Origin: Minisyncoccota bacterium
GTDB lineage: Bacteria > Patescibacteriota > Microgenomatia > UBA1400 > PJMF01
DNA: 60,075 bases
Reading direction: 5' to 3'
Assembly: GCA_009991965.1 (NCBI GenBank)
Contig: JAACWQ010000007.1
Coordinates: forward strand, 1-60,075
The notes beneath the pieces are model-generated. The model was not told the DNA's origin and ran no database searches. It saw only the letters and a program-made list of their open reading frames with translations. Positions 1-59,046 of this stretch are shown one piece after another. Each line of letters begins with the position of its first letter. Within the stretch, counting starts at the first letter, position 1. The position numbers were made by a program, and so were the translations under genes.

Positions 1-2520
1 AACACCACTATAGTTGGCAGCGCAGATTTTGTCGGTGGCACCAGTACTGGCACCCTCACCTTCTCTGGGGTCACAACTGACATAACTACGGGCACCAACC
101 AACACCTCGCGCTCATGCCAAATGGCACTGGCAACGTCGGCATCGGGACGACGGGGCCCTTTACCAACCTACAGATAGTTGGCAGAATGAATGTTGGAAC
201 GACCACCCAGTCTTCGTTTGCACATGCCAACTCTAAATTACAGATTCTTAGTGCTGGAGCCAGTGAAGCTTCGATTGGATTTTGGGAAAGTGGTCAAGCA
301 GCCGCTTTAATTGGTCACGCAGCATCAAGCTCAAATTTTTATATCACAAACACATATGCTGGTGACGCTATTGGAACCGCTGCAAAATCCATCACTCTCG
401 ATCAAAACGGCAACGTCGGCATTGGGACGACGGAGCCGAGTACAAAACTAGAAATTGTTGAGGGAAACGGAACAACTGTTTATCAAGAAGGCACTATTGA
501 TGTAACAAGAACCGTTAGTGGATATAGCGTTAACCCAGTGGGTATGAGGGCTACTGTCTCAGGCGCTGCGACTTATGAAGGCCATGGAGTATTCGGTGTT
601 GCAAGTGTTGAGGGAACCAACTATGGTGTTTATGGACTAGCTCAAGGAACCTCAACTAATTATGGAGTGTATTGTTTGGCACAATCGGGCACCACTAATC
701 GCTGTGGAGGAAATCAAGTGTGGACAAATACTTCTGACGCAAGAGTAAAACGCAACATCACAAAAATAACAAACGCTCTCGACAAAGTTACTAGCTTGCG
801 TGGAGTCAGTTTTTACCGCACCGATGACGGCTCAACAAACTTGCAAATTGGCTTTATAGCCCAAGAAGTCTTGCCCATTGTTCCAGAGGTAGTTCACTAC
901 GATCTAAGAGCCGATCTATACTCAATGGATTATGCATCTTTAACAGCACTGCTCACCAACGCCATTCAAGAACAGCAAGTCCTGATCGCCACCCTCGCCA
1001 CCAACGGCGAGCTCTCCTTCTCTTCCACCGGAGAAGTCCTCATCGCGGGGCAACTAGATAATTATCAAGTCACTGCTGGCATCGACGATTCGCTCGTTAC
1101 CAAAATCGCAGTTCTCGCAGAATCCGCGATTGGCAAACTCCGCGCTGGCCTTATCACCACCCAAGACCTCGTTGTCACCAAATCTGCCATTATTGCCGAT
1201 CTCTCGGTCACTACTCTAAGAATAGGTGAACAATCCATCCAAACCTATGTTGAGCAAATCGTAGCCACTGCTCTACAAAACAATTCACAAACACTCCCCG
1301 CCCAAACACTCGTCAGTCCTGTGGCCAATCTCGATTCGATTACTACCCAAACTGCAACTGTTTCTGGTAGCACCACTACGCAATCGCTCACTGTCTCGGG
1401 CGAAACCAAACTTGGTGCCTTGGTCGCCCAAGAAATTACCACCCCTACCCTCGTGGCCAGCCAGATCGAAGCCACCTCAGCGCGGATTGCCGCACTCGAG
1501 GTCGGTATGGCGCAACTCGAGTCGGTCCGCGCCCAGACTGCCGAGATCGTTGATGCCACTATCTCTGGTACGCTCTACGCCAACAACATTTACGGCTTTG
1601 AGGAAAAACTAGCTACCAGTCTGAGAGAACCGACTCTCCTCGAGACACTCCTTGGCCAACAAACAGCTGCCCCAGGCAGTGCTGACGCGATTGCAGCGGC
1701 AGAACTCGCTGGCTTCCAAGCCACCCCATCGGCTGCGCTCCAAGCGACACTAGCAGAGCTGCAACTCAGCGAGGGTGATGTTGTCCTCTCGAGCGCTGCG
1801 CTGTTTGTCGACCAATACTTCTCTGTCAACGGCACCGGCTACATTGCAGACTCCCTCGGCATTGGCAACAAACTCTATGTTGGTGACGGCCTCGAGTTCT
1901 CTGATGGCATGATTGCGTATAACCCAACCGGAGTTGAGCACCCTACTCTCTACATCCAGCCATCTGGTATGGGTTCCATCTCGCTGCTTGCTGGTCTGAT
2001 GACGTTGTCCGATGATGGGACAGTCGCGATCAACGGAGACTTAAACGTCGCCGGCACCCTCAAGACCGATACTCTACTCTCCAACTTGTTGCAACCAGCC
2101 GACTTTGGCAATCCATTCCAAGTGCAAGTGGCTGGTATCTCGACAGAATCTGGCCAGGTCAAGCAGTCGCGCTTTGAGATTATCAATGAGCTTGGTACGC
2201 CAGTGGCGACCATCTCCGCCCAAGGCAAGGCAGATTTTGCTGGCGGCATTGGGGTTGGCAGCGATACCCAAGTAGCAACTGGTAGCAGCGAAATAAATAC
2301 CGACAAAACTTCTGGTAAGGCCACGATCGCAGCTGGCACCAGCGAGCTTGTCATCCACTCTACCGTCCTGAGCGAGGACAGCCTGATCTACGTCACTCCG
2401 GGTGGCAGTACGGGAAATAAAGTTCTCTACGTCAAGAGCCAGCAAGCAGATCAATTTGTGGTTGGATTTGACAGCGCGACAACAAGCAACGTGTCATTCA
2501 ATTGGTGGGTGGTAAATTAA
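1..2520 (+). CDS. Fibre-like surface protein, 5' end outside the window, with an internal peptidase-S74 intramolecular-chaperone domain
   Basis: Frame 1 is open from nt 1 (NTTIVGSADFVGG...HLAL precedes the first Met at 115), so the gene starts upstream. It has repeated GNVGIGTT(G/E)P motifs. An S74-type segment, SDARVKRNI...LRGVSFYR...IGFIAQEV..PEVV...LLTNAIQEQQ, is present. Stop TAA at 2518-2520. Confidence 0.75.
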   Translation, partial: NTTIVGSADFVGGTSTGTLTFSGVTTDITTGTNQHLALMPNGTGNVGIGTTGPFTNLQIVGRMNVGTTTQSSFAHANSKLQILSAGASEASIGFWESGQAAALIGHAASSSNFYITNTYAGDAIGTAAKSITLDQNGNVGIGTTEPSTKLEIVEGNGTTVYQEGTIDVTRTVSGYSVNPVGMRATVSGAATYEGHGVFGVASVEGTNYGVYGLAQGTSTNYGVYCLAQSGTTNRCGGNQVWTNTSDARVKRNITKITNALDKVTSLRGVSFYRTDDGSTNLQIGFIAQEVLPIVPEVVHYDLRADLYSMDYASLTALLTNAIQEQQVLIATLATNGELSFSSTGEVLIAGQLDNYQVTAGIDDSLVTKIAVLAESAIGKLRAGLITTQDLVVTKSAIIADLSVTTLRIGEQSIQTYVEQIVATALQNNSQTLPAQTLVSPVANLDSITTQTATVSGSTTTQSLTVSGETKLGALVAQEITTPTLVASQIEATSARIAALEVGMAQLESVRAQTAEIVDATISGTLYANNIYGFEEKLATSLREPTLLETLLGQQTAAPGSADAIAAAELAGFQATPSAALQATLAELQLSEGDVVLSSAALFVDQYFSVNGTGYIADSLGIGNKLYVGDGLEFSDGMIAYNPTGVEHPTLYIQPSGMGSISLLAGLMTLSDDGTVAINGDLNVAGTLKTDTLLSNLLQPADFGNPFQVQVAGISTESGQVKQSRFEIINELGTPVATISAQGKADFAGGIGVGSDTQVATGSSEINTDKTSGKATIAAGTSELVIHSTVLSEDSLIYVTPGGSTGNKVLYVKSQQADQFVVGFDSATTSNVSFNWWVVN
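733..993 (+). other. Peptidase-S74 (tail-spike/endosialidase intramolecular chaperone) domain segment inside the fibre-like CDS
   Basis: The codon at 733 is the Ser of the T-S-D-A-R-V-K motif. About 87 aa match the S74 consensus as I recall it (SD.r.K.nI......l..L..v.f......-GfiAQev..v.Pe.v...). Confidence 0.7.
2482..2520 (+). repeat. Gene-end repeat copy A (the functional 3' end of the fibre-like gene, TSNVSFNWWVVN*)
   Basis: acaagcaacgtgtcattcaattggtgggtggtaaattaa. Homologous to copies at 2894-2935 and 4227-4268. Confidence 0.85.
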
Positions 2521-2528
2521 ATACCACA

Positions 2529-2557
2529 TTGACATTGTATATACAATGCAATATTAT
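2529..2557 (+). promoter_or_regulatory. Sigma70-like promoter (TTGACA-17-TATTAT) with a 16-bp perfect palindrome in the spacer
   Basis: TTGACA at 2529-2534, TATTAT at 2552-2557. The palindrome CATTGTATATACAATG at 2533-2548 is its own reverse complement. It sits 6 nt upstream of the GTG start of the RHH gene, so it is a plausible autoregulatory operator. Confidence 0.5.
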
Positions 2558-2563
2558 TAGTTC

Positions 2564-2839
2564 GTGAAGCAAATCGATTGGAGCGAGGAGAAAAAAATAC
2601 TACAAGACTTTGATAGCGGATTATTACAATCTGTTCCCAATCTTAAATCAGAAAGCAAACGCTACGCCAGTTATGCAAAGGCAACACTCGCCAAAAAGAA
2701 AACTATTTCTTTCAGAATTTCAGAGCCGGTACTCAACGAGCTTAAGTCGCGTGCCGAAGAAGCGGGATTGCCCTATCAAACGTTACTCTCAACCCTCATT
2801 CATCAGTTTACCAGCAGAAAAATTGCTCTTAAATTGTAA
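2564..2839 (+). CDS. Ribbon-helix-helix CopG/BrnA-type antitoxin-like protein, with no adjacent toxin gene
   Basis: The C-terminal KKTISFRISEPVLNELKSRAEEAGLPYQTLLSTLIHQFTSRKI matches the CopG-antitoxin/BrnA pattern (isiRl...l..lk..A...GipYQtLi...lh.y). GTG start; an in-frame stop lies just upstream at 2558. Confidence 0.7.
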   Translation: MKQIDWSEEKKILQDFDSGLLQSVPNLKSESKRYASYAKATLAKKKTISFRISEPVLNELKSRAEEAGLPYQTLLSTLIHQFTSRKIALKL

Positions 2840-2893
2840 TGTTGTTCCCGAATTTTTAACTTGACACATTAAATATTCGGTATATGTACCAGA

Positions 2894-2935
2894 ACAAATG
2901 TCGCTGTGCCGTTCAACTGGTGGGTGGTGAATTGA
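2894..2935 (+). repeat. Gene-end repeat copy B (translates TNVAVPFNWWVVN* in its own frame)
   Basis: acaaatgtcgctgtgccgttcaactggtgggtggtgaattga. Conserved with copy A at both nucleotide and peptide level, including a terminal stop. Not part of any long ORF in that frame. Confidence 0.85.
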
Positions 2936-2960
2936 CAGAGAGCAATTCTTGCAATATAAT
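2932..2960 (+). promoter_or_regulatory. Perfect consensus sigma70 promoter (TTGACA-17-TATAAT), 7 nt upstream of the ATPase-1 ATG
   Basis: TTGACA at 2932-2937 straddles the end of repeat copy B (aatTGA|CA). TATAAT at 2955-2960, ATG at 2968. The geometry implies a leaderless or near-leaderless mRNA. Confidence 0.6.
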
Positions 2961-2967
2961 TCACAGT

Positions 2968-4221
2968 ATGAATAAAAGTTATTCACAAGATGAATTATAT
3001 TACTCTCGCTGGCTCACAGAACATCTCAAAGACGCGCTGGAAACCCATGCGGTCATTGTCCTCACCGGCGCGCGGCAAGTAGGCAAAAGCACTCTTTTGC
3101 GCAACGAGGAACCGTTCCGTTCCTGGCGTTACCACACCTTCGACGATCTCGAAACTTTGGAGCAAGCGCGAACCAACCCAACCAGCCTCTGGGCCGGAAC
3201 AGAAAACATCGTACTCGATGAGGTGCAGCGAGCACCAGAAGTACTCTTGGCTGTCAAACAAGCTATAGACACTCATCCGAAGAAGTACCGCTTTGTGCTT
3301 TCCGGTTCAGCAAACTTACTGCTCATGCAGCAGGTCAGCGAGAGCCTGGCGGGGCGCGCCGTCTACTTTGTCTTGCACCCGCTCACCTTGGGTGAACAGC
3401 ATCGACAGCCTCCCCCCCCTTTGCTGACAGACCTTCTGAGCGCCCAGTGGCCCAGTGAGTCGCTGGTTGCTACACAGCCCCCAGAGCCAGGTAGCTTTCT
3501 CCTGCGCGGAGCAATGCCCGGGTTGGTGGCTCTCACGGCACCGGCAGCCTGGTTGCGCTGGTGGGAAGGCTATATCCTCACGTATCTTGAGCGAGACCTC
3601 AGACAGATTGCCCAAATCGATGCCCTGCTTGACTATCGCCGATTGATGGAACTCTTGGCCTTACATACTGGCCAGTTACTCAATCAATCTGAGATAGGCC
3701 GCGATGCTGGCCTCACACAACCGACCGCCCATCGCTACATCAATCTACTGGAAACCACACACCTTCTGGAGCGCCTTGCTCCCTATACTGCGGGTCGTAT
3801 CCAGCGACTAGTGAAATCGTCCAAAGTATTCTGGACAGATCCTGCCTTGCCAGTCTTTTTGTCTGGTTATTTCGATGAAGAGAGTCTCAGAACTTCTCGT
3901 GAATTTGGATCATTTTTTGAAGCACTTGTGTACCAACATCTGCGGGTATTGTCCGAGTTGATGGTGCCCAAAGCCCGTCTCTACTTCTGGCGCACCCGCA
4001 CGGGGCAAGAGGTAGATTTTGTTGTAGAACAGGGAAAAAAACTTTTGGCTATCGAAGTCAAATTGACCAAAAATCCTCACTACCAAGATACCGCAGGACT
4101 GCGCTCCTTTCTGGAAACACATAAAAGCGCACAAGGTGGTGTTTTGCTCCACGCAGGCAAAGAGATCCGGTACTTGGACGAGCGCATTATCGCCATACCG
4201 TGGACGCTGATAACTGGCTAA
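2968..4221 (+). CDS. AAA ATPase (AAA_14 type) fused to a DUF4143 / PD-(D/E)xK-like domain, paralogue 1
   Basis: Walker A LTGARQVGKSTLL, Walker B IVLDEVQ, C-terminal nuclease-like motif EVDFVVEQGKKLLAIEVK. I use Met29 of the tracked ORF (2884) because the upstream part is repeat copy B read in another frame and the consensus promoter sits at 2932-2960. Confidence 0.85.
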   Translation: MNKSYSQDELYYSRWLTEHLKDALETHAVIVLTGARQVGKSTLLRNEEPFRSWRYHTFDDLETLEQARTNPTSLWAGTENIVLDEVQRAPEVLLAVKQAIDTHPKKYRFVLSGSANLLLMQQVSESLAGRAVYFVLHPLTLGEQHRQPPPPLLTDLLSAQWPSESLVATQPPEPGSFLLRGAMPGLVALTAPAAWLRWWEGYILTYLERDLRQIAQIDALLDYRRLMELLALHTGQLLNQSEIGRDAGLTQPTAHRYINLLETTHLLERLAPYTAGRIQRLVKSSKVFWTDPALPVFLSGYFDEESLRTSREFGSFFEALVYQHLRVLSELMVPKARLYFWRTRTGQEVDFVVEQGKKLLAIEVKLTKNPHYQDTAGLRSFLETHKSAQGGVLLHAGKEIRYLDERIIAIPWTLITG

Positions 4222-4226
4222 ATACT

Positions 4227-4268
4227 ACTAACATTGCTGTACCGTTCAACTAGTGGGTGGTAAATTAA
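4227..4268 (+). repeat. Gene-end repeat copy C (decayed: TNIAVPFN*WVVN*)
   Basis: actaacattgctgtaccgttcaactagtgggtggtaaattaa. By-eye identity to copy B is ~80%. It carries an internal TAG where copies A and B have TGG. Confidence 0.85.
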
Positions 4269-4274
4269 CTAATT

Positions 4275-4325
4275 TTGTCGCAATTTATATAAATTGAGAC
4301 ATTTCATTGTCGCAATTTTATAAAA
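4275..4325 (+). repeat. Two direct copies of TTGTCGCAATTT + AT-rich tail, 32 bp apart, in the ATPase-2 upstream region
   Basis: ttgtcgcaatttatataaa at 4275-4293 and ttgtcgcaattttataaaa at 4307-4325. A possible promoter is TTGTCG(4307)-18-TACAAT(4331-4336). A GAAGG RBS precedes the ATG at 4358. Confidence 0.5.
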
Positions 4326-4357
4326 TGTGTTACAATATCACAAAGAAAGAAGGCAGT

Positions 4358-5488
4358 ATGATCGACCGAGTTCTTGAAAAGGACATTGAACAGTATCTCT
4401 TTCGCGGGCGCGTTATCACAATTTACGGCGCACGTAGAGTTGGCAAAACAACACTCGTCAAGAAAGTTCTGCAAAATCACCCGGACAAGCGCACCCGCTA
4501 CCTCAACTGTGACCTACAATCAGTGCAGACTGCACTCAGTATCAAAGAAGCCAAACCGCTCAAGTCTTACTTAGGTGAATATGATCTGGTTGTGCTAGAC
4601 GAAGCCCAAAATATCCCTGATGTGGGCAAAATACTAAAAATACTGGTGGACACGTACCCACAGATGCAAATTATCGCTACAGGCTCTTCCTCATTTGATC
4701 TAGCAAATAGTACTGGCGAGCCACTCACTGGGCGCGCCTATCCCCTGCGACTCTATCCTGTTTCTTTACAGGAGTTAGCAGGCAAAAGTGGTTACAGTAT
4801 CATCGAGCCACAACTGAATAACTTCCTACGCTTTGGTCTCTACCCAAGTATTATTGACCTCTCAGAACGAGACGCTCAGATCCAACTGCAGGAGTTGGTT
4901 TCAAGCTATCTTTATCGAGATGTGCTTGCATACATCGGCGTCAAACGCTCCAAAATGGTAAGCGACCTCTTACGACTCTTGGCGCTCCAAGTTGGTAATG
5001 AAGTATCCTACCCAGAACTGGGAACAATCTTAGGTCTAGATCGCAGAACAGTTCTCTCCTACATTGACATTCTAGAACAATCATTTGTTGTCTTTACCTT
5101 GAGTGGCTTCAGTCGTAACCTGAGAAAAGAAGTCAGTAAAACCCAAAAAATTTATTTCTATGACATGGGAGTTCGCAATGCTCTTTTGCAGGCTTTTGCG
5201 CCCCTCTCCCTGCGCAACGACGTGGGCGCACTCTGGGAAAACTTCTGTATTGTAGAGCGCCTCAAAAAAGCCAACAACACCGGACTTACCAATAATCGCT
5301 ACTTCTGGCGCACCTATGACAAGAAGGAAATCGACTACATCGAGGAGCGTGATGGGATTCTCTCTGGTTTCGAGTTCAAGTGGAATCCAAAGCGCAGCAT
5401 GAGGGTACCCAAGGAATTCCTGGATACCTACCCAGGCAGTACTGTCGAGCAAGTAGATAGAGGTAACTACTGGCGTCATCTACTCTAG
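4358..5488 (+). CDS. AAA ATPase (AAA_14) + DUF4143 / PD-(D/E)xK-like domain, paralogue 2
   Basis: Walker A IYGARRVGKTTLV, Walker B VVLDEAQ, C-terminal EIDYIEERDGILSGFEFK. Start moved to Met18 (MIDRVLEK), which has a GAAGG RBS 5 nt upstream. Confidence 0.85.
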   Translation: MIDRVLEKDIEQYLFRGRVITIYGARRVGKTTLVKKVLQNHPDKRTRYLNCDLQSVQTALSIKEAKPLKSYLGEYDLVVLDEAQNIPDVGKILKILVDTYPQMQIIATGSSSFDLANSTGEPLTGRAYPLRLYPVSLQELAGKSGYSIIEPQLNNFLRFGLYPSIIDLSERDAQIQLQELVSSYLYRDVLAYIGVKRSKMVSDLLRLLALQVGNEVSYPELGTILGLDRRTVLSYIDILEQSFVVFTLSGFSRNLRKEVSKTQKIYFYDMGVRNALLQAFAPLSLRNDVGALWENFCIVERLKKANNTGLTNNRYFWRTYDKKEIDYIEERDGILSGFEFKWNPKRSMRVPKEFLDTYPGSTVEQVDRGNYWRHLL

Positions 5489-53236: not shown

Positions 53237-54064
53237 ATGATAGATGCTGCTAAATTAACACAATTGACCGATCTGATCGCCCAAGCCAAATCTATTTTTG
53301 TTATTTTCCCTGCTACTGCATCGCCGGACAATCGCGCTGCTGCCGAGGCACTTGCGGCAAGTTTATCTCAAGCAGGCAAAGACATTCGATTATTGTCGCC
53401 CCGTACTCCAGAGTCATCTCGCTATCCGGAGTCGAGCGAAGTTGCGGTTACCACAGAGCTTGGCAATCAAAATTTGGTGCTCAGTTTTTCGTATGAGCCA
53501 GAGCAGGTGGACAATGTGAATTACCATATTGGCGAAGAAACGGGACGTTTTTACTTGACTATTAAGCCGCAGAAAGGCCAAAAACCGCTTGATCCTGCTT
53601 CGGTTGAGTTTTCCTACACTGGGGCAGAGGCCGACCTCATTTTTGCCGTTGGCGTCAAGGAACTTGCAGAACTCGAGCAGCTCTACATGAGTTACGAAGA
53701 TGTTTATAGTAGTGTGCCGATTGTTTCGATCACAAACTTTGAGCCACAATTTGCCACGCTGGCGATCAATGCCGGAAGTAGTCCTAGCTTGAGTCAAGAA
53801 GTAGCGCGACTGATTGCTGACCTCGGGTTTACGATTTCTCAAGACGCAGCTACTCAATTATTGTATGGAATTGAAATGGTGACCCAAGGGCTTGCTTCTC
53901 GCAGTGTTACGGCTGAGACGTTTGAAACTGTCGGGCAGTTGCTGCGACAAGGCGCGCGCAGGATTGGGTTTGAGCAAAAATCGATTGAGGTCACCAAAGA
54001 AGTGAAATCAGCTAAAAATGAAACCACCTCGATCAAGAAGAGCATGCCGATAGCGCGCGGCTAA
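53237..54064 (+). CDS. Hypothetical protein, DHH/NrnA-like fold suspected but catalytic motifs absent
   Basis: SIFVIFPATASPDNRAAAEALAASLSQAGKDIRLLSP resembles the start of NrnA-type DHH proteins, but the DHH His/Asp residues are not seen. Weak call. Confidence 0.4.
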   Translation: MIDAAKLTQLTDLIAQAKSIFVIFPATASPDNRAAAEALAASLSQAGKDIRLLSPRTPESSRYPESSEVAVTTELGNQNLVLSFSYEPEQVDNVNYHIGEETGRFYLTIKPQKGQKPLDPASVEFSYTGAEADLIFAVGVKELAELEQLYMSYEDVYSSVPIVSITNFEPQFATLAINAGSSPSLSQEVARLIADLGFTISQDAATQLLYGIEMVTQGLASRSVTAETFETVGQLLRQGARRIGFEQKSIEVTKEVKSAKNETTSIKKSMPIARG

Positions 54065-54069
54065 ATTAT
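54050..54069 (+). repeat. Direct repeat, left copy (end of the 53237-54064 gene: ..PIARG*)
   Basis: ATAGCGCGCGGCTAAATTAT. The first 15 nt are identical to 54749-54763. Confidence 0.9.
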
Positions 54070-54114
54070 AGTGTCCAGTTACTTTTTTGACCCTCATTTC
54101 TTTCTATTGACAAA

Positions 54115-54453
54115 ATGTTCATTTTAAAGAACAATATGTTGGTGAGGAAGAAAATTGTTGTTGCCAAATCAGCGCAAAAAGAATTTAAAAAATTATCACA
54201 AAATGTCCGTGCAAAGATAGATGCTCGAGCACAAATCTTAGCAAGGGATGGAAAACTAACTGAGCCATATGGTAAGAAAATCGATGACAAACTATTTGAA
54301 ATGAGATTGAGAGTTGGTGGTCAGTGGCGAGTGTTGTATGCATATGTTTTTAACAACTACGTTGTGCTATTGACAGTTTTTTTGAAGAAAACTCAGAAAA
54401 CACCTACAAATGAATTACAAAAAGCTCGTAAGCGACTGGAGGAATACATATGA
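54115..54453 (+). CDS. higB: RelE/ParE-superfamily toxin, Gp49/HigB-like
   Basis: ...KEFKKLSQNVRAKIDARAQILARDG...KKIDDKLFEMRLRVGGQWRVLYAYVFNNYVVLLTVFLKKTQKTP is the Gp49-like (DUF891) pattern. ATGA overlap with the HTH gene. The start could be Met8 (54136). Confidence 0.8.
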   Translation: MFILKNNMLVRKKIVVAKSAQKEFKKLSQNVRAKIDARAQILARDGKLTEPYGKKIDDKLFEMRLRVGGQWRVLYAYVFNNYVVLLTVFLKKTQKTPTNELQKARKRLEEYI

Positions 54454-54752
54454 AAAAAACTAGCATACAGCAGATGCAGATGAGTACAATTCCTTGGAAT
54501 GAGTTCAATATAGACTTTACCAATGAGCAACATAAAATTATTCAGAATGAAATTGCGTATTATGATGCACTACAATCCTTAAAAAAAACTAGAAAACAGC
54601 TTGGTTTAACACAAGCAGAGTTAGCAATTAGGGCAAGCATGCCGAGAACAACCATTACTAAGGTTGAGTCAGGAAGTTATAACCCAACACTTAGTACACT
54701 GATGACAATGGCTACTGCTTTGGGCAAACAACTGCGGATTACGCTAACATAG
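54450..54752 (+). CDS. higA: XRE-family HTH antitoxin (HigA-like)
   Basis: RKQLGLTQAELAIRASMPRTTITKVESGSYNPTLSTLMTMATALG is a Cro/C1-type HTH. Confidence 0.85.
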   Translation: MKKTSIQQMQMSTIPWNEFNIDFTNEQHKIIQNEIAYYDALQSLKKTRKQLGLTQAELAIRASMPRTTITKVESGSYNPTLSTLMTMATALGKQLRITLT

Positions 54753-54768
54753 CGCGCGGCTAATTTAT
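54749..54768 (+). repeat. Direct repeat, right copy (overlaps the higA-like stop codon)
   Basis: ATAGCGCGCGGCTAATTTAT. 19/20 identical to 54050-54069, offset 699 bp. Confidence 0.9.
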
Positions 54769-57700
54769 TTAATAACACGCAGGATCAGGATAATTTGCAG
54801 GCGGTGTTTTTGCTGGCTGTCCCATTTCATCTCGCAGTTTTTTCCAGAGACTCCAGACGTATTTTGCTTGTGGAGTGTGGGCGTTCCAAATTTGACCATA
54901 TGAATTTTCACCACGAACGGCAAACGCAGAGGCAAAGGCATTTTGATTGTCTGGATATTTTTGTGCCCCGGTCCACAACACAAGCCGACAAGCAGCATCG
55001 GCAGCAGCAGGGATGTTGGTGGGCGAACTAAAGTCTACACCCAGACCAGACATATATTCTGGAGTAAAACTAGTTGGTTCGTGGTTGGCACATGCCGAAG
55101 CACCAGTGTTGTAGGGCGTAGTCCAAATACCCCAAGCGCCAGGGGTAAATTGCCAGACGCCGCGTGCTCCCGCACTACTTTCGGTAGTATTGTTGTATAC
55201 AGAACTTTCTGAATGAGCGACGGCCAGCGCGAGCAGGGGATCGCAGCCATATCTTTGCGATGCTGCTTGGATGCTATCCCAAATGGTTTGTGATGGTGGG
55301 GTGAAGGTCACCGTGCTGTTATTCCAGTATTGGATATCAAACTTTATATCTTTGCCAAATTTGGAAATACTACCAACGTCGGAGTTACTGACTTCATCGC
55401 AACCAACTTCTCTGATGGTATTGGGAAAGAGATTGTCGCAGCTCATGGCCTCATCTTTACCAAGGTATGGCAACTCAAATTTCCTACCAAAAATCTGTTC
55501 GTATAAGGCCAAACCTGGCAATTTATTTGTGCCTGATTCGTCATCAGGTTTGAATAATTCAGACCAGAGCTCTAGGTTGCCGGCTCCATTGAGTCCACCA
55601 CACGATGAGTTGAGCATGATGTCGTAACCTTTTCCGGCTACGCTGCAACCATAACTATCTGTTACGAATACATGATCAGCTCCATCTGGTCCGCCCGGCA
55701 TGTTTGAGTTGAAGGTAGCTTTTGCACAATACGATTTTCGACCATTCATGCCCACGCCAACAGGAATGATGGCTGCACTCCCTTGTGAAAAAGGATCGAT
55801 TGATGTGTTGCCATTTTTATCAGTCCAAACAGCGCCACGCGAAAGGCAGCCAAATGTATAGCTTGGAACAAAATAATACCCAGGTTTTACACGGAAACTT
55901 GCAATGACATTTGTCCAGTCTTTTGTTCCCGTGGCTGGTACAAGCTTTGATCCTCGCTTGTCCCAAGCTTCTGGCTTTATTACTTCTTCAATAGGCACGT
56001 CTGGCGGTAGATACCAAATTTGTCCTGCAGTGATGTCGTAAGGACCCACGCCACAGCGTGGCATAGCACCATTCTCTGTCTGGTATTGTCCTGGATTCAT
56101 TGTCACGATACTCCCAGTTGTTATCAGCGTGCCGCCATCGAGAATTCTAGTGACAAGCTCCAGGGTGTAGTCAGATGATTGATCAAGAAAATATGCCTCA
56201 CTCCCTTGATCAATTGGTTCACAATTTTCTGGTGGTACGCCAGTTCTGCAGATACGAAATGAAGTAGTCGTGGTGTTGGTGAGGGTAAGTTCTTTTGCGC
56301 CGCAATAGCTGAGTGATTTTTGTGGTTCTTTTTGCTGGAGTCCAGCACAACGATCAAGCAAAAATTCCTCGGTAGTTTTGCATGCTGCAAGGTAGGTTTG
56401 GACAGAGCTGGCTTCTTTAGCCAATGCTCGTTGGATAGCTCGCAAGTAGTATCCCAACTTGGCACCTAGGAATTGAATTTGTGGCAGCTTGGGTAGATCG
56501 ATGGTAGCTACAATCGCGCTCCAACAATCTTTGCCCTTGGTACGTACACATTTGCCTGGATCAAAAATAGTAAATGACTCAGTATTCTTGGTTAATTTGG
56601 TCGTGCCGCCAAATAGTTCAAAGCGTTTGTTTAGGTTGGGGTCTTGGTTGATCGTCTCAATTTGTTTGTCGGTCAAAAAACTGTTGATCAGAACATTCTC
56701 AACTTCTGCCAGCTCATAGCCTACAGGGTAGACCAAATAGGCTTTGAGTGAGGTAGAGTCAGACAAGAAAGTGCCATCTCGGGTAGAAATCTTATTGATG
56801 ATAAATTTGCTAATCAACTCTCGGGCAACTTTGTCAGTACTTGTACTTGCGAGCTGTAAAAACAATTGTGTGACAAGTTCTGAGCCAAATGTTTCTGGGA
56901 AAATTGCTCTGGGGTTTTGTTGTTGTGCTGCTGCTGGCTCATCAATGCTGAATGATTGATCGATGTCTTCAGGTCCGGCGCAATTAAGCTGCTTGCCGTC
57001 AATTTGGTCTTGGGCATTTACGATATCAGTTAGGGCTTTGACGAGTTGGTCGTTGCAGGCAATACTGCCAGTGCCATTGGGTGGTTGGCCATCGAGACAG
57101 TAAATGGGATTGCTTGGACCCTGACCCATCACAGCGGTGACGGTATTGGCTAAAGTTGACTTAAGTTCTGTTTTTCGGTCAGCTGCCAGAGCTTGCTGGT
57201 TGACGGTAAGTAGGGAATCTCTCGCGAGCATGGCACCATCAGCAAAAAAAGGATACGCTTTTGAGTTGGAACCAGAAAAAGCATTCACACTTGGTTTGTT
57301 GGTGATGACATCGGGGATTTTAAACGCCACGACCAGGACCTCATCTCTAGGAAGTGTGCCATGAGCAAAAAAACTAAATAACTTATTTGGTTCTGGTTTG
57401 AGCTCTTTGAGACTCAAGACCAGAAATGCCAGACGATATCCACTCTCAGTGGTGAGCGGCACTTGCGTCAGGTCAGTAAATACTTGTTTTTTTGCTGCAT
57501 CTGAACTCTGTTCTAATTCTTTACAAATGGCCGTCATATTTTTTTCTTGGCCACCAGCTGAGCGATACTCTGCTAAGAGTGATTTGACGGTGTGACTGGT
57601 ATTTGGGATGAGAAATTTATAGAGCGCACACGCATCTGGGTTGATGAGCTTGGTGCACATATCGTCTTGCGCCCAAAGGTTTTTTGCTCCCTCAGCACAG

Positions 57701-59046
57701 CGTTGTGACTCAGAGAGGAGTGATTCGATGGGAGCGGAACTCAACTCGGCTTCGGAGTACGTGGTACTAGTTGGCTCTTGGTACGACCAGTACTCTTCGA
57801 GGTCACTTTTTATTTGGTACTTGCGCTCACTGTCTCGAAAGAGCGGCGTACGCGCGAGGGAGTAATCAAGTGTCAAAATTGGATTGAGGTTTAGTTCTTC
57901 ATCACCCCCGAAAGACAGAAACATCTTCACAATGTCTGCTGGACCCACTGAGCCAACGATTTGTTGTTCGGGAAAAGCGCAATACGCTTGATAGCCTTGT
58001 TCGACCAAATCAGCTTGGATTTGTGCATAGTCACGCCTACCAGGATCGGGATACAAACCAGCAAAGGGTGAAAGATGAAAAATGCTGGGGTTATATGCGA
58101 GGTTGGGCGCAGCTACACTGGAGCCGGGATCTGCGAGGGGATTCCATGGTTCAGTTTCGGTAATGATAAGTGGCTTAGAAAATCTGTCCAAATTTTGATC
58201 TTTCCAGTACTGCTGCATGCTTTGGCCAGCTGGGTACAAATTGCCGGCAAAGGCATCGATGCAGTCGAAATTTGCGCCTGCCTTTTGCATACCTTTATAG
58301 ATGCCATCAAAAGACGGGGAAGTTAAGTTAAATGCAGGAGAGAGCAGGCGTACATTACTTGGTTTGGCTGCACAAACAGCATTCATGTACTGTGCGAGAG
58401 CTGGCCCAATGCAATCAAAATATATATTTCCTGCTCCGCTTGAGTATCTGCCGCATTCTGGAGCAAACCAATTTTCTATATCCGGTTCATTTGGTCCGGC
58501 AATGGCGTAAAATTCTTTGCCCGCAGCTCCGCGAGAAAGTGTTTGTAAGAAATCAATGTAGTCTCCAGCAATTCTATTTGGATTGGCGTTCCACTTGTCG
58601 AAACCTAGTCCAGAGTCTGCGATGCCAATTCTGACAATTGTTGTACTGTTGTGTGCGTTTATAGCAGCCAGTACTGCTCCGGGATTATTTTTTTCGGCAA
58701 TTTCCAGCGTCCACTGCATGCCAAACGAGTCTGTTTTTTCGTACGTCCCATGCCCAAACGTGGTGGCAAAATTGACTCCGAGATTGCCACATTTACCTTG
58801 TACACCGCCACAGAGATCAAGTACCTGCGTGTCATGCAAATAGTGTTTTTTGAAGTGAGGATCAGGATTGGTGCCAAAGGGGTCAAAGAGAAGTGCTGCT
58901 TTAGTTTTACCCAAAACAAATTGTAGGTCTGCCTTGAAGGCATCAAAGTCTGAGGTTGTCTGTGCCTTACTTATTTTAGGGTAGAAAAGTGCTGACAATC
59001 CAAAAAAAAGTACCAAAACACTTGCTAGTAGCCAGGATTTTCTCAC
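54769..59046 (-). CDS. Giant (1,425 aa) secreted cell-wall hydrolase candidate: N-terminal clan GH-A-like glycosidase domain and C-terminal SLT lytic-transglycosylase domain
   Basis: Signal peptide MRKSWLLASVLVLFFGLSALFYPKISKAQ. AIAGPNEPD (aa ~186) and PLIITETEPW (aa ~297) are spaced ~110 aa apart, like the acid/base and nucleophile of (beta/alpha)8 GH-A enzymes. The C-terminal ...LALAVAHSESSVYNNTTESSAGARGVWQFTPGAW is the SLT signature. Confidence 0.75.
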   Translation of the reverse strand: MRKSWLLASVLVLFFGLSALFYPKISKAQTTSDFDAFKADLQFVLGKTKAALLFDPFGTNPDPHFKKHYLHDTQVLDLCGGVQGKCGNLGVNFATTFGHGTYEKTDSFGMQWTLEIAEKNNPGAVLAAINAHNSTTIVRIGIADSGLGFDKWNANPNRIAGDYIDFLQTLSRGAAGKEFYAIAGPNEPDIENWFAPECGRYSSGAGNIYFDCIGPALAQYMNAVCAAKPSNVRLLSPAFNLTSPSFDGIYKGMQKAGANFDCIDAFAGNLYPAGQSMQQYWKDQNLDRFSKPLIITETEPWNPLADPGSSVAAPNLAYNPSIFHLSPFAGLYPDPGRRDYAQIQADLVEQGYQAYCAFPEQQIVGSVGPADIVKMFLSFGGDEELNLNPILTLDYSLARTPLFRDSERKYQIKSDLEEYWSYQEPTSTTYSEAELSSAPIESLLSESQRCAEGAKNLWAQDDMCTKLINPDACALYKFLIPNTSHTVKSLLAEYRSAGGQEKNMTAICKELEQSSDAAKKQVFTDLTQVPLTTESGYRLAFLVLSLKELKPEPNKLFSFFAHGTLPRDEVLVVAFKIPDVITNKPSVNAFSGSNSKAYPFFADGAMLARDSLLTVNQQALAADRKTELKSTLANTVTAVMGQGPSNPIYCLDGQPPNGTGSIACNDQLVKALTDIVNAQDQIDGKQLNCAGPEDIDQSFSIDEPAAAQQQNPRAIFPETFGSELVTQLFLQLASTSTDKVARELISKFIINKISTRDGTFLSDSTSLKAYLVYPVGYELAEVENVLINSFLTDKQIETINQDPNLNKRFELFGGTTKLTKNTESFTIFDPGKCVRTKGKDCWSAIVATIDLPKLPQIQFLGAKLGYYLRAIQRALAKEASSVQTYLAACKTTEEFLLDRCAGLQQKEPQKSLSYCGAKELTLTNTTTTSFRICRTGVPPENCEPIDQGSEAYFLDQSSDYTLELVTRILDGGTLITTGSIVTMNPGQYQTENGAMPRCGVGPYDITAGQIWYLPPDVPIEEVIKPEAWDKRGSKLVPATGTKDWTNVIASFRVKPGYYFVPSYTFGCLSRGAVWTDKNGNTSIDPFSQGSAAIIPVGVGMNGRKSYCAKATFNSNMPGGPDGADHVFVTDSYGCSVAGKGYDIMLNSSCGGLNGAGNLELWSELFKPDDESGTNKLPGLALYEQIFGRKFELPYLGKDEAMSCDNLFPNTIREVGCDEVSNSDVGSISKFGKDIKFDIQYWNNSTVTFTPPSQTIWDSIQAASQRYGCDPLLALAVAHSESSVYNNTTESSAGARGVWQFTPGAWGIWTTPYNTGASACANHEPTSFTPEYMSGLGVDFSSPTNIPAAADAACRLVLWTGAQKYPDNQNAFASAFAVRGENSYGQIWNAHTPQAKYVWSLWKKLRDEMGQPAKTPPANYPDPACY

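Follow-up and report, generated by a model that had tools for sequence, protein, structure and literature searches.

A HigBA-like toxin-antitoxin cassette inserted with a target duplication between convergent genes of a Minisyncoccota bacterium

How does a small toxin-antitoxin (TA) operon that carries no mobility gene come to lie between two convergent genes, bracketed by a duplication of the end of one of them? The question is posed by a stretch of 60,075 nucleotides, hereafter the window, which comprises positions 1 to 60,075 of contig JAACWQ010000007.1 (assembly GCA_009991965.1) of a Minisyncoccota bacterium, a member of the Candidate Phyla Radiation (CPR). The source genome (G000) is a metagenome-assembled genome (MAG) of 853,881 bp in 26 contigs, 93.6% complete. 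Toward the right end of the window a cassette resembling a higBA operon separates a gene for a conserved hypothetical protein (gene A) from one for a large hydrolase (gene H). The entry and movement of chromosomal TA modules have been described as poorly characterised (PMC13617665), and the A/H locus offers a clean natural case: the operon is intact, the target duplication is sharp, empty sites really exist in relatives, and the site holds other cargo in some of them. An earlier note on this DNA had read the locus as the insertion footprint of a promoter-bearing TA cassette without transposase or recombinase. Relatives that lack the cassette, its Pfam content, its promoter and its foreign base composition bear this out. 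Features described below lie on the forward strand unless stated otherwise.

The footprint consists of an exact 15-mer, ATAGCGCGCGGCTAA, present at 54050-54064 and again, at an offset of 699 bp, at 54749-54763, just as the earlier note had described it. The left copy encodes the last four codons and the TAA of gene A (I-A-R-G-stop), and the stop of the higA-like gene (TAG, 54750-54752) falls within the right copy. The next five nucleotides agree at four positions (ATTAT on the left, TTTAT on the right), giving a repeat of 19/20 with a left copy at 54050-54069 and a right copy at 54749-54768. At up to two mismatches there are only two copies of the 15-mer in the window (0.08 expected), and at up to one mismatch there are only two in the whole genome. 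No significant hairpin or palindrome was found in the repeat (z about 0). The ORF (open reading frame) of gene H ends at 54769-54771, and excision of one copy with the intervening DNA would leave the stops of A and H 5 bp apart, in agreement with the spacing of about 5 bp given in the earlier note. The predicted site after excision reads ...GCGCGCGGCTAA-TTTAT-TTAATAACACGC..., and a read from an empty site would join ...ATGCCGATAGCGCGCGGCTAA straight to TTTATTTAATAACACG. A circular or tandem form would show the cassette end ...ACGCTAAC, one copy of the repeat, and then ATTATAGTGTCC. A 10-mer, AGCATGCCGA (54041-54050), abuts the left repeat and occurs a second time at 54636-54645, inside higA; the gene A of all sampled relatives has AGCATGTCG in its place. 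About 0.4 such 10-mers are expected in the 951-bp region, and this recurrence is probably chance.

If the footprint records an insertion, relatives without the cassette would be expected to exist, and the earlier note had suggested looking for them. The site was found empty at eight loci: in the congener G002 (L003), in G005 (L017), which belongs to another genus, and at the metagenome loci L019-L024. In all eight, genes A and H converge at a distance of 1-30 bp, with a single homologous gene-A end and no insert. The nearest empty relative, judged by the C-terminal 300 residues of the hydrolase, is L020 (78%), in which the two stops are 1 bp apart and the junction reads ...GCGCGGGGGTGA-T-CTATACGC... 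The C terminus of the gene H product, ...PACY*, is homologous to ...SCV* of L020, with the stop at the same place, so that the stop of H in the predicted excised site occupies the position homologous to that in L020. Gene A (53237-54064 in the ORF list) encodes 275 residues without a Pfam match, and its last 12 coding bases and stop constitute the left repeat. Its orthologues align over the full length, with amino acid identities of 63-82% among the congeners and the metagenome loci and of 51% for G005, and they end in ...SM[SP][IV]ARG*; the closest gene-A relative, L028, whose locus is cut by a contig end, shows 90% identity over 139 residues. In every relative gene A ends in a single homologous copy; the repeat is therefore target sequence. 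We regard the insertion and its target duplication at the A/H site as secure.

It may be asked whether such a repeat could nevertheless have arisen by chance or as an artefact of assembly. The earlier note had thought a 15-mer pair at this spacing unlikely to occur by chance, and this part of its argument needs qualification, since in a genome of this size about 6 exact direct repeats of at least 15 bp within 6 kb are expected from composition. There are in fact 28 such pairs, the excess consisting mostly of paralogues and tRNAs. In addition, the genome is a MAG that includes a co-binned variant contig, C11. The significance of the repeat comes from its placement at both junctions rather than from the rarity of 15-mers: the probability that two 40-bp windows, placed at junctions defined independently, share a match of at least 15 bp is about 8e-7. 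Moreover, deletion of the interval recreates an empty-site architecture that really exists, the same structure is seen in many independent assemblies, and a 20-bp repeat is shorter than the k-mers usually employed in assembly. An origin by chance or artefact can thus be regarded as extremely improbable.

What has been inserted? The cassette proper occupies 54070-54748, on the evidence of the composition profile and of its absence from G002, G005 and L019-L024, and its G+C content (0.33-0.37) departs from that of both flanks (about 0.46). A promoter scan found TTGACA-17 nt-AACAAT at 54107-54135 (10/12). Between the -35 and -10 hexamers sits an inverted repeat, ATGTTC-N8-GAACAA (54115-54134), which is likely to be the HigA operator because the string TTGACAAAATGTTC...GAACAAT is kept in the cassette at L031 and, in a partial version, in that at L032. 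The first gene (54115-54453 in the ORF list) encodes a higB-like toxin that matches Pfam Gp49 (PF05973) with E 1.1e-20 over the full profile (1-90/90). Position 54115 lies within the promoter, and the true start is therefore probably the GTG at 54142 or the ATG at 54136. The second gene (54450-54752) encodes a higA-like XRE helix-turn-helix (HTH) antitoxin (Pfam HTH_3, E 3.5e-13), its start overlapping the higB stop in ATGA (54450-54453). HigA homologues align up to residues 97-100 of 100, from which it follows that the antitoxin is full length and not truncated. The toxin comes first, the Gp49 and HTH genes are translationally coupled by their overlap, and a palindromic operator is predicted in the promoter, as in type II systems of the HigBA type. 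In the insert Pfam finds Gp49 and HTH only, with no transposase, recombinase or other mobility domain, and no terminal inverted repeats were found at the cassette ends. As predicted from these features, the cassette is a complete, promoter-bearing higB/higA type II TA operon of foreign, AT-rich origin. The best HigB match among species-representative genomes (71% amino acid identity) is in a Ca. Paceibacterota MAG, and no near-identical donor of the cassette was found among those genomes. Beyond the cassette, gene H (54769-59046, reverse strand, in the ORF list) encodes a 1,425-residue hydrolase with an SLT domain (Pfam).

Within the genus, the space separating genes A and H is a hotspot for cargo. 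At the position of the window site 54065-54768, G004 carries a BrnT/CopG TA pair (L002:2188-2762), G001 carries a Fic gene, fused there to MerR (L015:1829-2839), and G003 carries an AAA_14/DUF4143 ATPase gene (L016:1654-2814). Fic is also the cargo in L026, in L027 and on the small contig C11, and G001 and G003 share an ancestral spacer that is found to one side of the cargo in one genome and to the other side in the other. Contig C11 belongs to the same genome as the window. Its 2.4 kb (L018:1-2382) contain a copy of gene A with 64% identity followed by the Fic gene, a layout like that of G001, L026 and L027, and it more probably represents a related strain or species binned together with this genome than a true paralogue.

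A second site in the window is comparable. Gene X (115-2520) encodes an 801-residue protein with a Peptidase_S74 domain. In the gene-end repeats at 2482-4268 the earlier note had seen an echo of the A/H site; the echo is real and is stronger than was stated, as sequence comparison finds the end of gene X, FNWWVVN-stop, three times. The true end (FNWWVVN*) is at 2497-2520. Copy 2 is at 2903-2935, its last bases forming the -35 element of the next promoter, and copy 3, at 4236-4268, matches copy 2 at 28/31 positions. Directly after each copy stand a promoter and a cassette, so that the three copies delimit the first two cassettes. The first cassette (2564-2839) encodes a 91-residue CopG/BrnA-like protein (Pfam) and has its own TTGACA promoter and palindrome; the second (2968-4221) encodes an AAA_14/DUF4143 ATPase (Pfam; PADLOC PDC-S01, E 6e-110), and the third a further ATPase of this type (4307-5488). 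The two ATPases stand in tandem and are of the same type as the cargo of G003 at the A/H site; PDC-S01 is a candidate defence family in PADLOC. In G002 and G003 this site is empty, the bare end of gene X being followed by a convergent gene. G004 has the same CopG cassette and then copy 2, which places the CopG insertion before the split of G000 and G004; among the congeners the second cassette, with the ATPase, and copy 3 occur in the window's genome only. Displacement of C-terminal domains of the Rhs/CdiA type was considered for gene X and rejected, as the stop codon is part of the copies and precedes the cassettes.

The presence of different cargo between the same two conserved genes suggests another explanation. 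In Neisseria, Saunders and Snyder are said to have described in 2002 minimal mobile elements, differing whole-gene cassettes without mobility genes that occupy the space between the same conserved genes and whose exchange is thought to proceed through transformation and homology of the flanks. The A/H site, which is either empty or filled with HigBA, BrnT/CopG, Fic or AAA-DUF4143, shows just such a variety of cassettes. It could be argued that the HigBA operon reached this genome ready-made, a relative having supplied it through transformation and homologous recombination within the conserved flanking genes; its duplication would then have arisen elsewhere, with no de novo insertion in this lineage. 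The genome does encode a ComEC homologue, and copies 2 and 3 of the gene-X end are closer to each other and to the G002 allele than to the resident end. However, the concept of minimal mobile elements covers exchange and not first insertion, and it includes no target duplication, so that import would merely shift the origin of the duplication to another genome and explain nothing of it. Furthermore, both copies at the A/H site are identical, at 15/15 positions, to the end of the genome's own gene A, which differs from that of every sampled relative. We consider ready-made import an unlikely account of this locus.

It was of interest to ask whether related cassettes are flanked in the same way. 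Loci with HigB homologues were collected from the same bacterial family (n=18) and from other phyla (n=70). For each cassette the 270 bp on its upstream side were compared with the 175 bp that span and follow its end, and the score was that of the best ungapped direct match. Scores of at least 13 were obtained for 5 of the 18 in-family cassettes and 12 of the 70 from other phyla, compared with 2 of 400 random segment pairs and 3 of 71 neighbouring ordinary genes at the same loci. At a threshold of at least 16 the corresponding figures are 2/18, 10/70, 2/400 and 1/71, and the cross-phylum cassettes differ from the neighbouring genes with P = 0.004 (Fisher's exact test). One of the control genes, which encodes 221 residues (L116:4072-4737), is bracketed by a 79-bp imperfect direct repeat and may be another cassette inserted with target duplication. 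In total, 17 of the 88 homologous cassettes are flanked by repeats, the sequences of which are all different and the lengths of which run from 13 to about 110 bp. The same footprint thus surrounds roughly one fifth of Gp49-HigB/HTH cassettes, in several phyla. We regard this recurrence within the family and across phyla as a more useful result than the single locus.

The repeats are mostly derived from the 3' end of a co-oriented upstream gene, including its stop (L068, L094), or from its terminator hairpin (L054, L055, L057, L061, L067). Those of L038 and L092 lie over a 5' or intergenic region. The earlier note had gone on to suggest a common mechanism that targets gene 3' ends. A common mode of insertion is supported by the 17 cassettes, but targeting is not established, given the 5' and intergenic cases and the three cargoes at the A/H site that lack repeats (see below). 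The distance from the left end of the cassette to the -35 hexamer differs among the window, L031 and L032. The longest repeat, of 110 bp, flanks a Chamaesiphon cassette (L068), for which single-copy empty sites, recognised by overlapping alignments to both repeats, are present in four congeners (G170, G161, G185, G182). In two of these, cassettes 94% (L151, in G182) and 89% (L150, in G185) identical to that of L068 are found at other positions, about 1 kb or less from the empty site.

These data bear on the possibility of site-specific recombination, in which the repeat would serve as attL/attR core and a recombinase from host or phage, acting in trans, would move the cassette as a minimal integrative element. 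The enzyme could be an Xer-like tyrosine recombinase, a large serine recombinase or a resolvase that recognises a res-like site. Fifteen bp is a typical length for such a core, duplication at gene 3' ends is a hallmark of integrases, and in integrative elements, as here, direct repeats of a 3' end bracket foreign DNA and serial insertions stack at one end, as at the end of gene X, which has been used at least twice. Two tyrosine (Xer-like) and two large serine recombinases are encoded in the genome, all on other contigs. In Photorhabdus laumondii TT01 the ParE/RelE 26 locus, a TA operon likewise absent from a close relative and without a mobility gene, is flanked on both sides by a 24-bp palindrome, of which the empty site has one copy; the palindrome resembles the res-I site of Tn3 and was interpreted as the target of a resolvase (Belot et al. 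2026, PMC13617665). Lastly, two of the Chamaesiphon cassettes have a common right end. Nevertheless, integrative elements depend on a cognate integrase and a fixed core, whereas neither the insert nor the DNA next to it encodes a recombinase, and each of the 17 repeat-flanked homologous cassettes has a repeat of its own sequence, with lengths of 13-110 bp. Even the two repeat-bearing sites in the window differ from each other (ATAGCGCGCGGCTAA and the FNWWVVN* gene end), and homologues of the cassette carry no copy of the site. In contrast to the Photorhabdus palindrome, the repeat at the A/H site is the coding end of a neighbouring gene, conserved as such in the empty-site relatives, with no significant structure and no link to Tn3. 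Variable, target-derived repeats argue against a dedicated recombinase, and we think site-specific recombination rather unlikely. An integron was dropped from consideration, there being no attC-like structure and, as tyrosine recombinases, only the two Xer-like ones.

A target duplication is also the expected product of staggered cleavage, and the cassette might be a non-autonomous passenger, comparable to a miniature inverted-repeat transposable element (MITE), mobilised in trans by a transposase or a casposase-like integrase whose cuts are widely staggered; the repeat would then be a true target-site duplication. Casposons produce duplications of 14-15 bp, often at gene 3' ends, and some elements of the IS4 family produce long and variable ones, so that both the duplication of about 15 bp and its location at a gene end find a parallel. 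However, the cassette lacks the terminal inverted repeats of casposons and of DDE transposons and MITEs. No match to Cas1 (PF01867) was found in the 93.6%-complete genome, and the insert is only 0.7 kb long. Among related cassettes the length of the duplication is not fixed (13-110 bp), nor is the distance of the left end from the promoter. Transposition appears to us quite improbable. That the repeats are target-derived and differ from site to site, and that both their length and the left ends of the cassettes vary, speaks against a fixed att core as well as against a transposase with a set stagger.

We consider it probable, with some reservation, that the HigBA operon was inserted by an illegitimate, host-mediated event independent of any recombinase, with duplication of the target, and that survival of the neighbours and addiction then acted as filters. 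An incoming fragment carrying the operon would enter the gap of 1-5 bp between the convergent genes A and H through two independent joints, made to staggered positions on replicating or broken DNA. The terminal 15-20 bp of the target, comprising the gene-A end and a short spacer, were duplicated, so that both neighbours kept intact ends. No Ku was found in the genome. Two filters may then operate. In a gene-dense genome of 0.85 Mb, with convergent genes 1-30 bp apart, survivors would be limited to insertions in which gene ends and terminators had been duplicated and not deleted; the bias toward 3' ends can be explained by the survival of insertions that leave both neighbours intact. Moreover, recombination between the repeats would readily remove the insert unless its loss were punished, as it would be by an addictive TA pair. 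We infer the entry route, for which the genome offers a ComEC homologue, as well as the manner of joining and the filters of selection and addiction.

The proposed event would be the same as the insertion "with long and variable target duplication" that has been described for restriction-modification (R-M) units, the mechanism of which is unknown (Nobusato et al. 2000, Gene 259:99; Furuta, Abe and Kobayashi 2010, PMC2853133). In the R-M cases the repeats are unique in the genome and often span the start or stop of a neighbour, the inserts are low in GC, and the species are mostly competent; cut-offs of >30 bp in the genome-comparison screen and >20 bp in the repeat screen were meant to exclude att cores (Furuta et al. 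2010, PMC2853133). The A/H cassette is similar in being a small addictive unit of deviant GC without a mobility gene, with repeats that occur nowhere else in the genome and have one counterpart at the empty site. It differs in its cargo, which is HigB/HigA and not an R-M unit, in its CPR host, and in the length of its repeat, which at 15 exact bases (19/20) is below both cut-offs, although the homologous cassettes form a continuum of 13-110 bp. Toxins of the RelE/HigB family cut mRNA and not DNA, and for this reason the idea of the R-M authors that DNA breakage drives insertion would not apply here. The cassette thus behaves like the R-M family as a short-duplication variant and is not a strict member of it. 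Events of this type are known for R-M units and for one published TA case; it is the cargo, the short repeat and the CPR host that make the A/H cassette a variant. The R-M papers and the 2026 Photorhabdus case were the only literature found on such a footprint around TA loci, and no paper was found that reports its recurrence around HigBA cassettes within the family or across phyla.

Several observations weigh against the preferred reading of a recombinase-independent insertion. The BrnT/CopG, Fic and AAA cargoes of G004, G001 and G003 have no flanking repeat above background, and neither do the Chamaesiphon cassette copies in G182 and G185. Insertions without repeats imply either that the scars decay or that more than one route exists. 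The right end of the G182 cassette coincides within about 2 bp with that of L068 (...TATTTAYC then CG), although the two, 94% identical, are at different sites, and this is a hint that the element has a defined end. Repeated insertion at the gene-X end also has the look of site specificity. A repeat of 15-20 bp is within reach of an att core or of an unusually long transposase stagger, and a trans-acting enzyme could be missing from the assembly, given the incompleteness of the MAG. The control sample of 71 genes is small.

More tentatively, and with doubt slightly outweighing belief, we suggest a general recombinase-free insertion route for addictive modules, both TA and R-M, by two-ended illegitimate joining or template switching at gene ends and terminators, which would extend from the CPR to cyanobacteria, Bacteroidota and Firmicutes. 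If this were so, addiction would explain why TA and R-M cargo, rather than ordinary genes, remain between direct repeats, and HigBA-type cassettes would be mobile units that are autonomous although they carry no mobility gene. The analysis also marks out the ends of convergent genes, in streamlined CPR genomes, as recurrent landing pads for defence and addiction genes.

The search, suggested in the earlier note, for other short duplications at convergent gene ends yielded one further candidate in the source genome. The 15-mer CTACTTTAGCTTCTT occurs at the stops of a 453-residue gene and of rpmG (L33), which converge (G000:C4:3348-4592, equivalent to L139:1849-3093; copies at 3348 and 4578). 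The two copies bracket a 371-residue ORFan of lower GC, which is absent from G002; the insert of G004 is larger. Since G002 has native gene ends that resemble both copies, the pair is ambiguous as a duplication. A last observation concerns the cassette at L031 (G056:C2). Directly upstream of its HigBA promoter is a 60-bp relic (L031:1400-1465), about 85% identical to the sequence for the HigA C terminus, so that the repeat flanking this cassette corresponds to its own 3' end, an indication that cassettes have been inserted there in tandem or have replaced one another.

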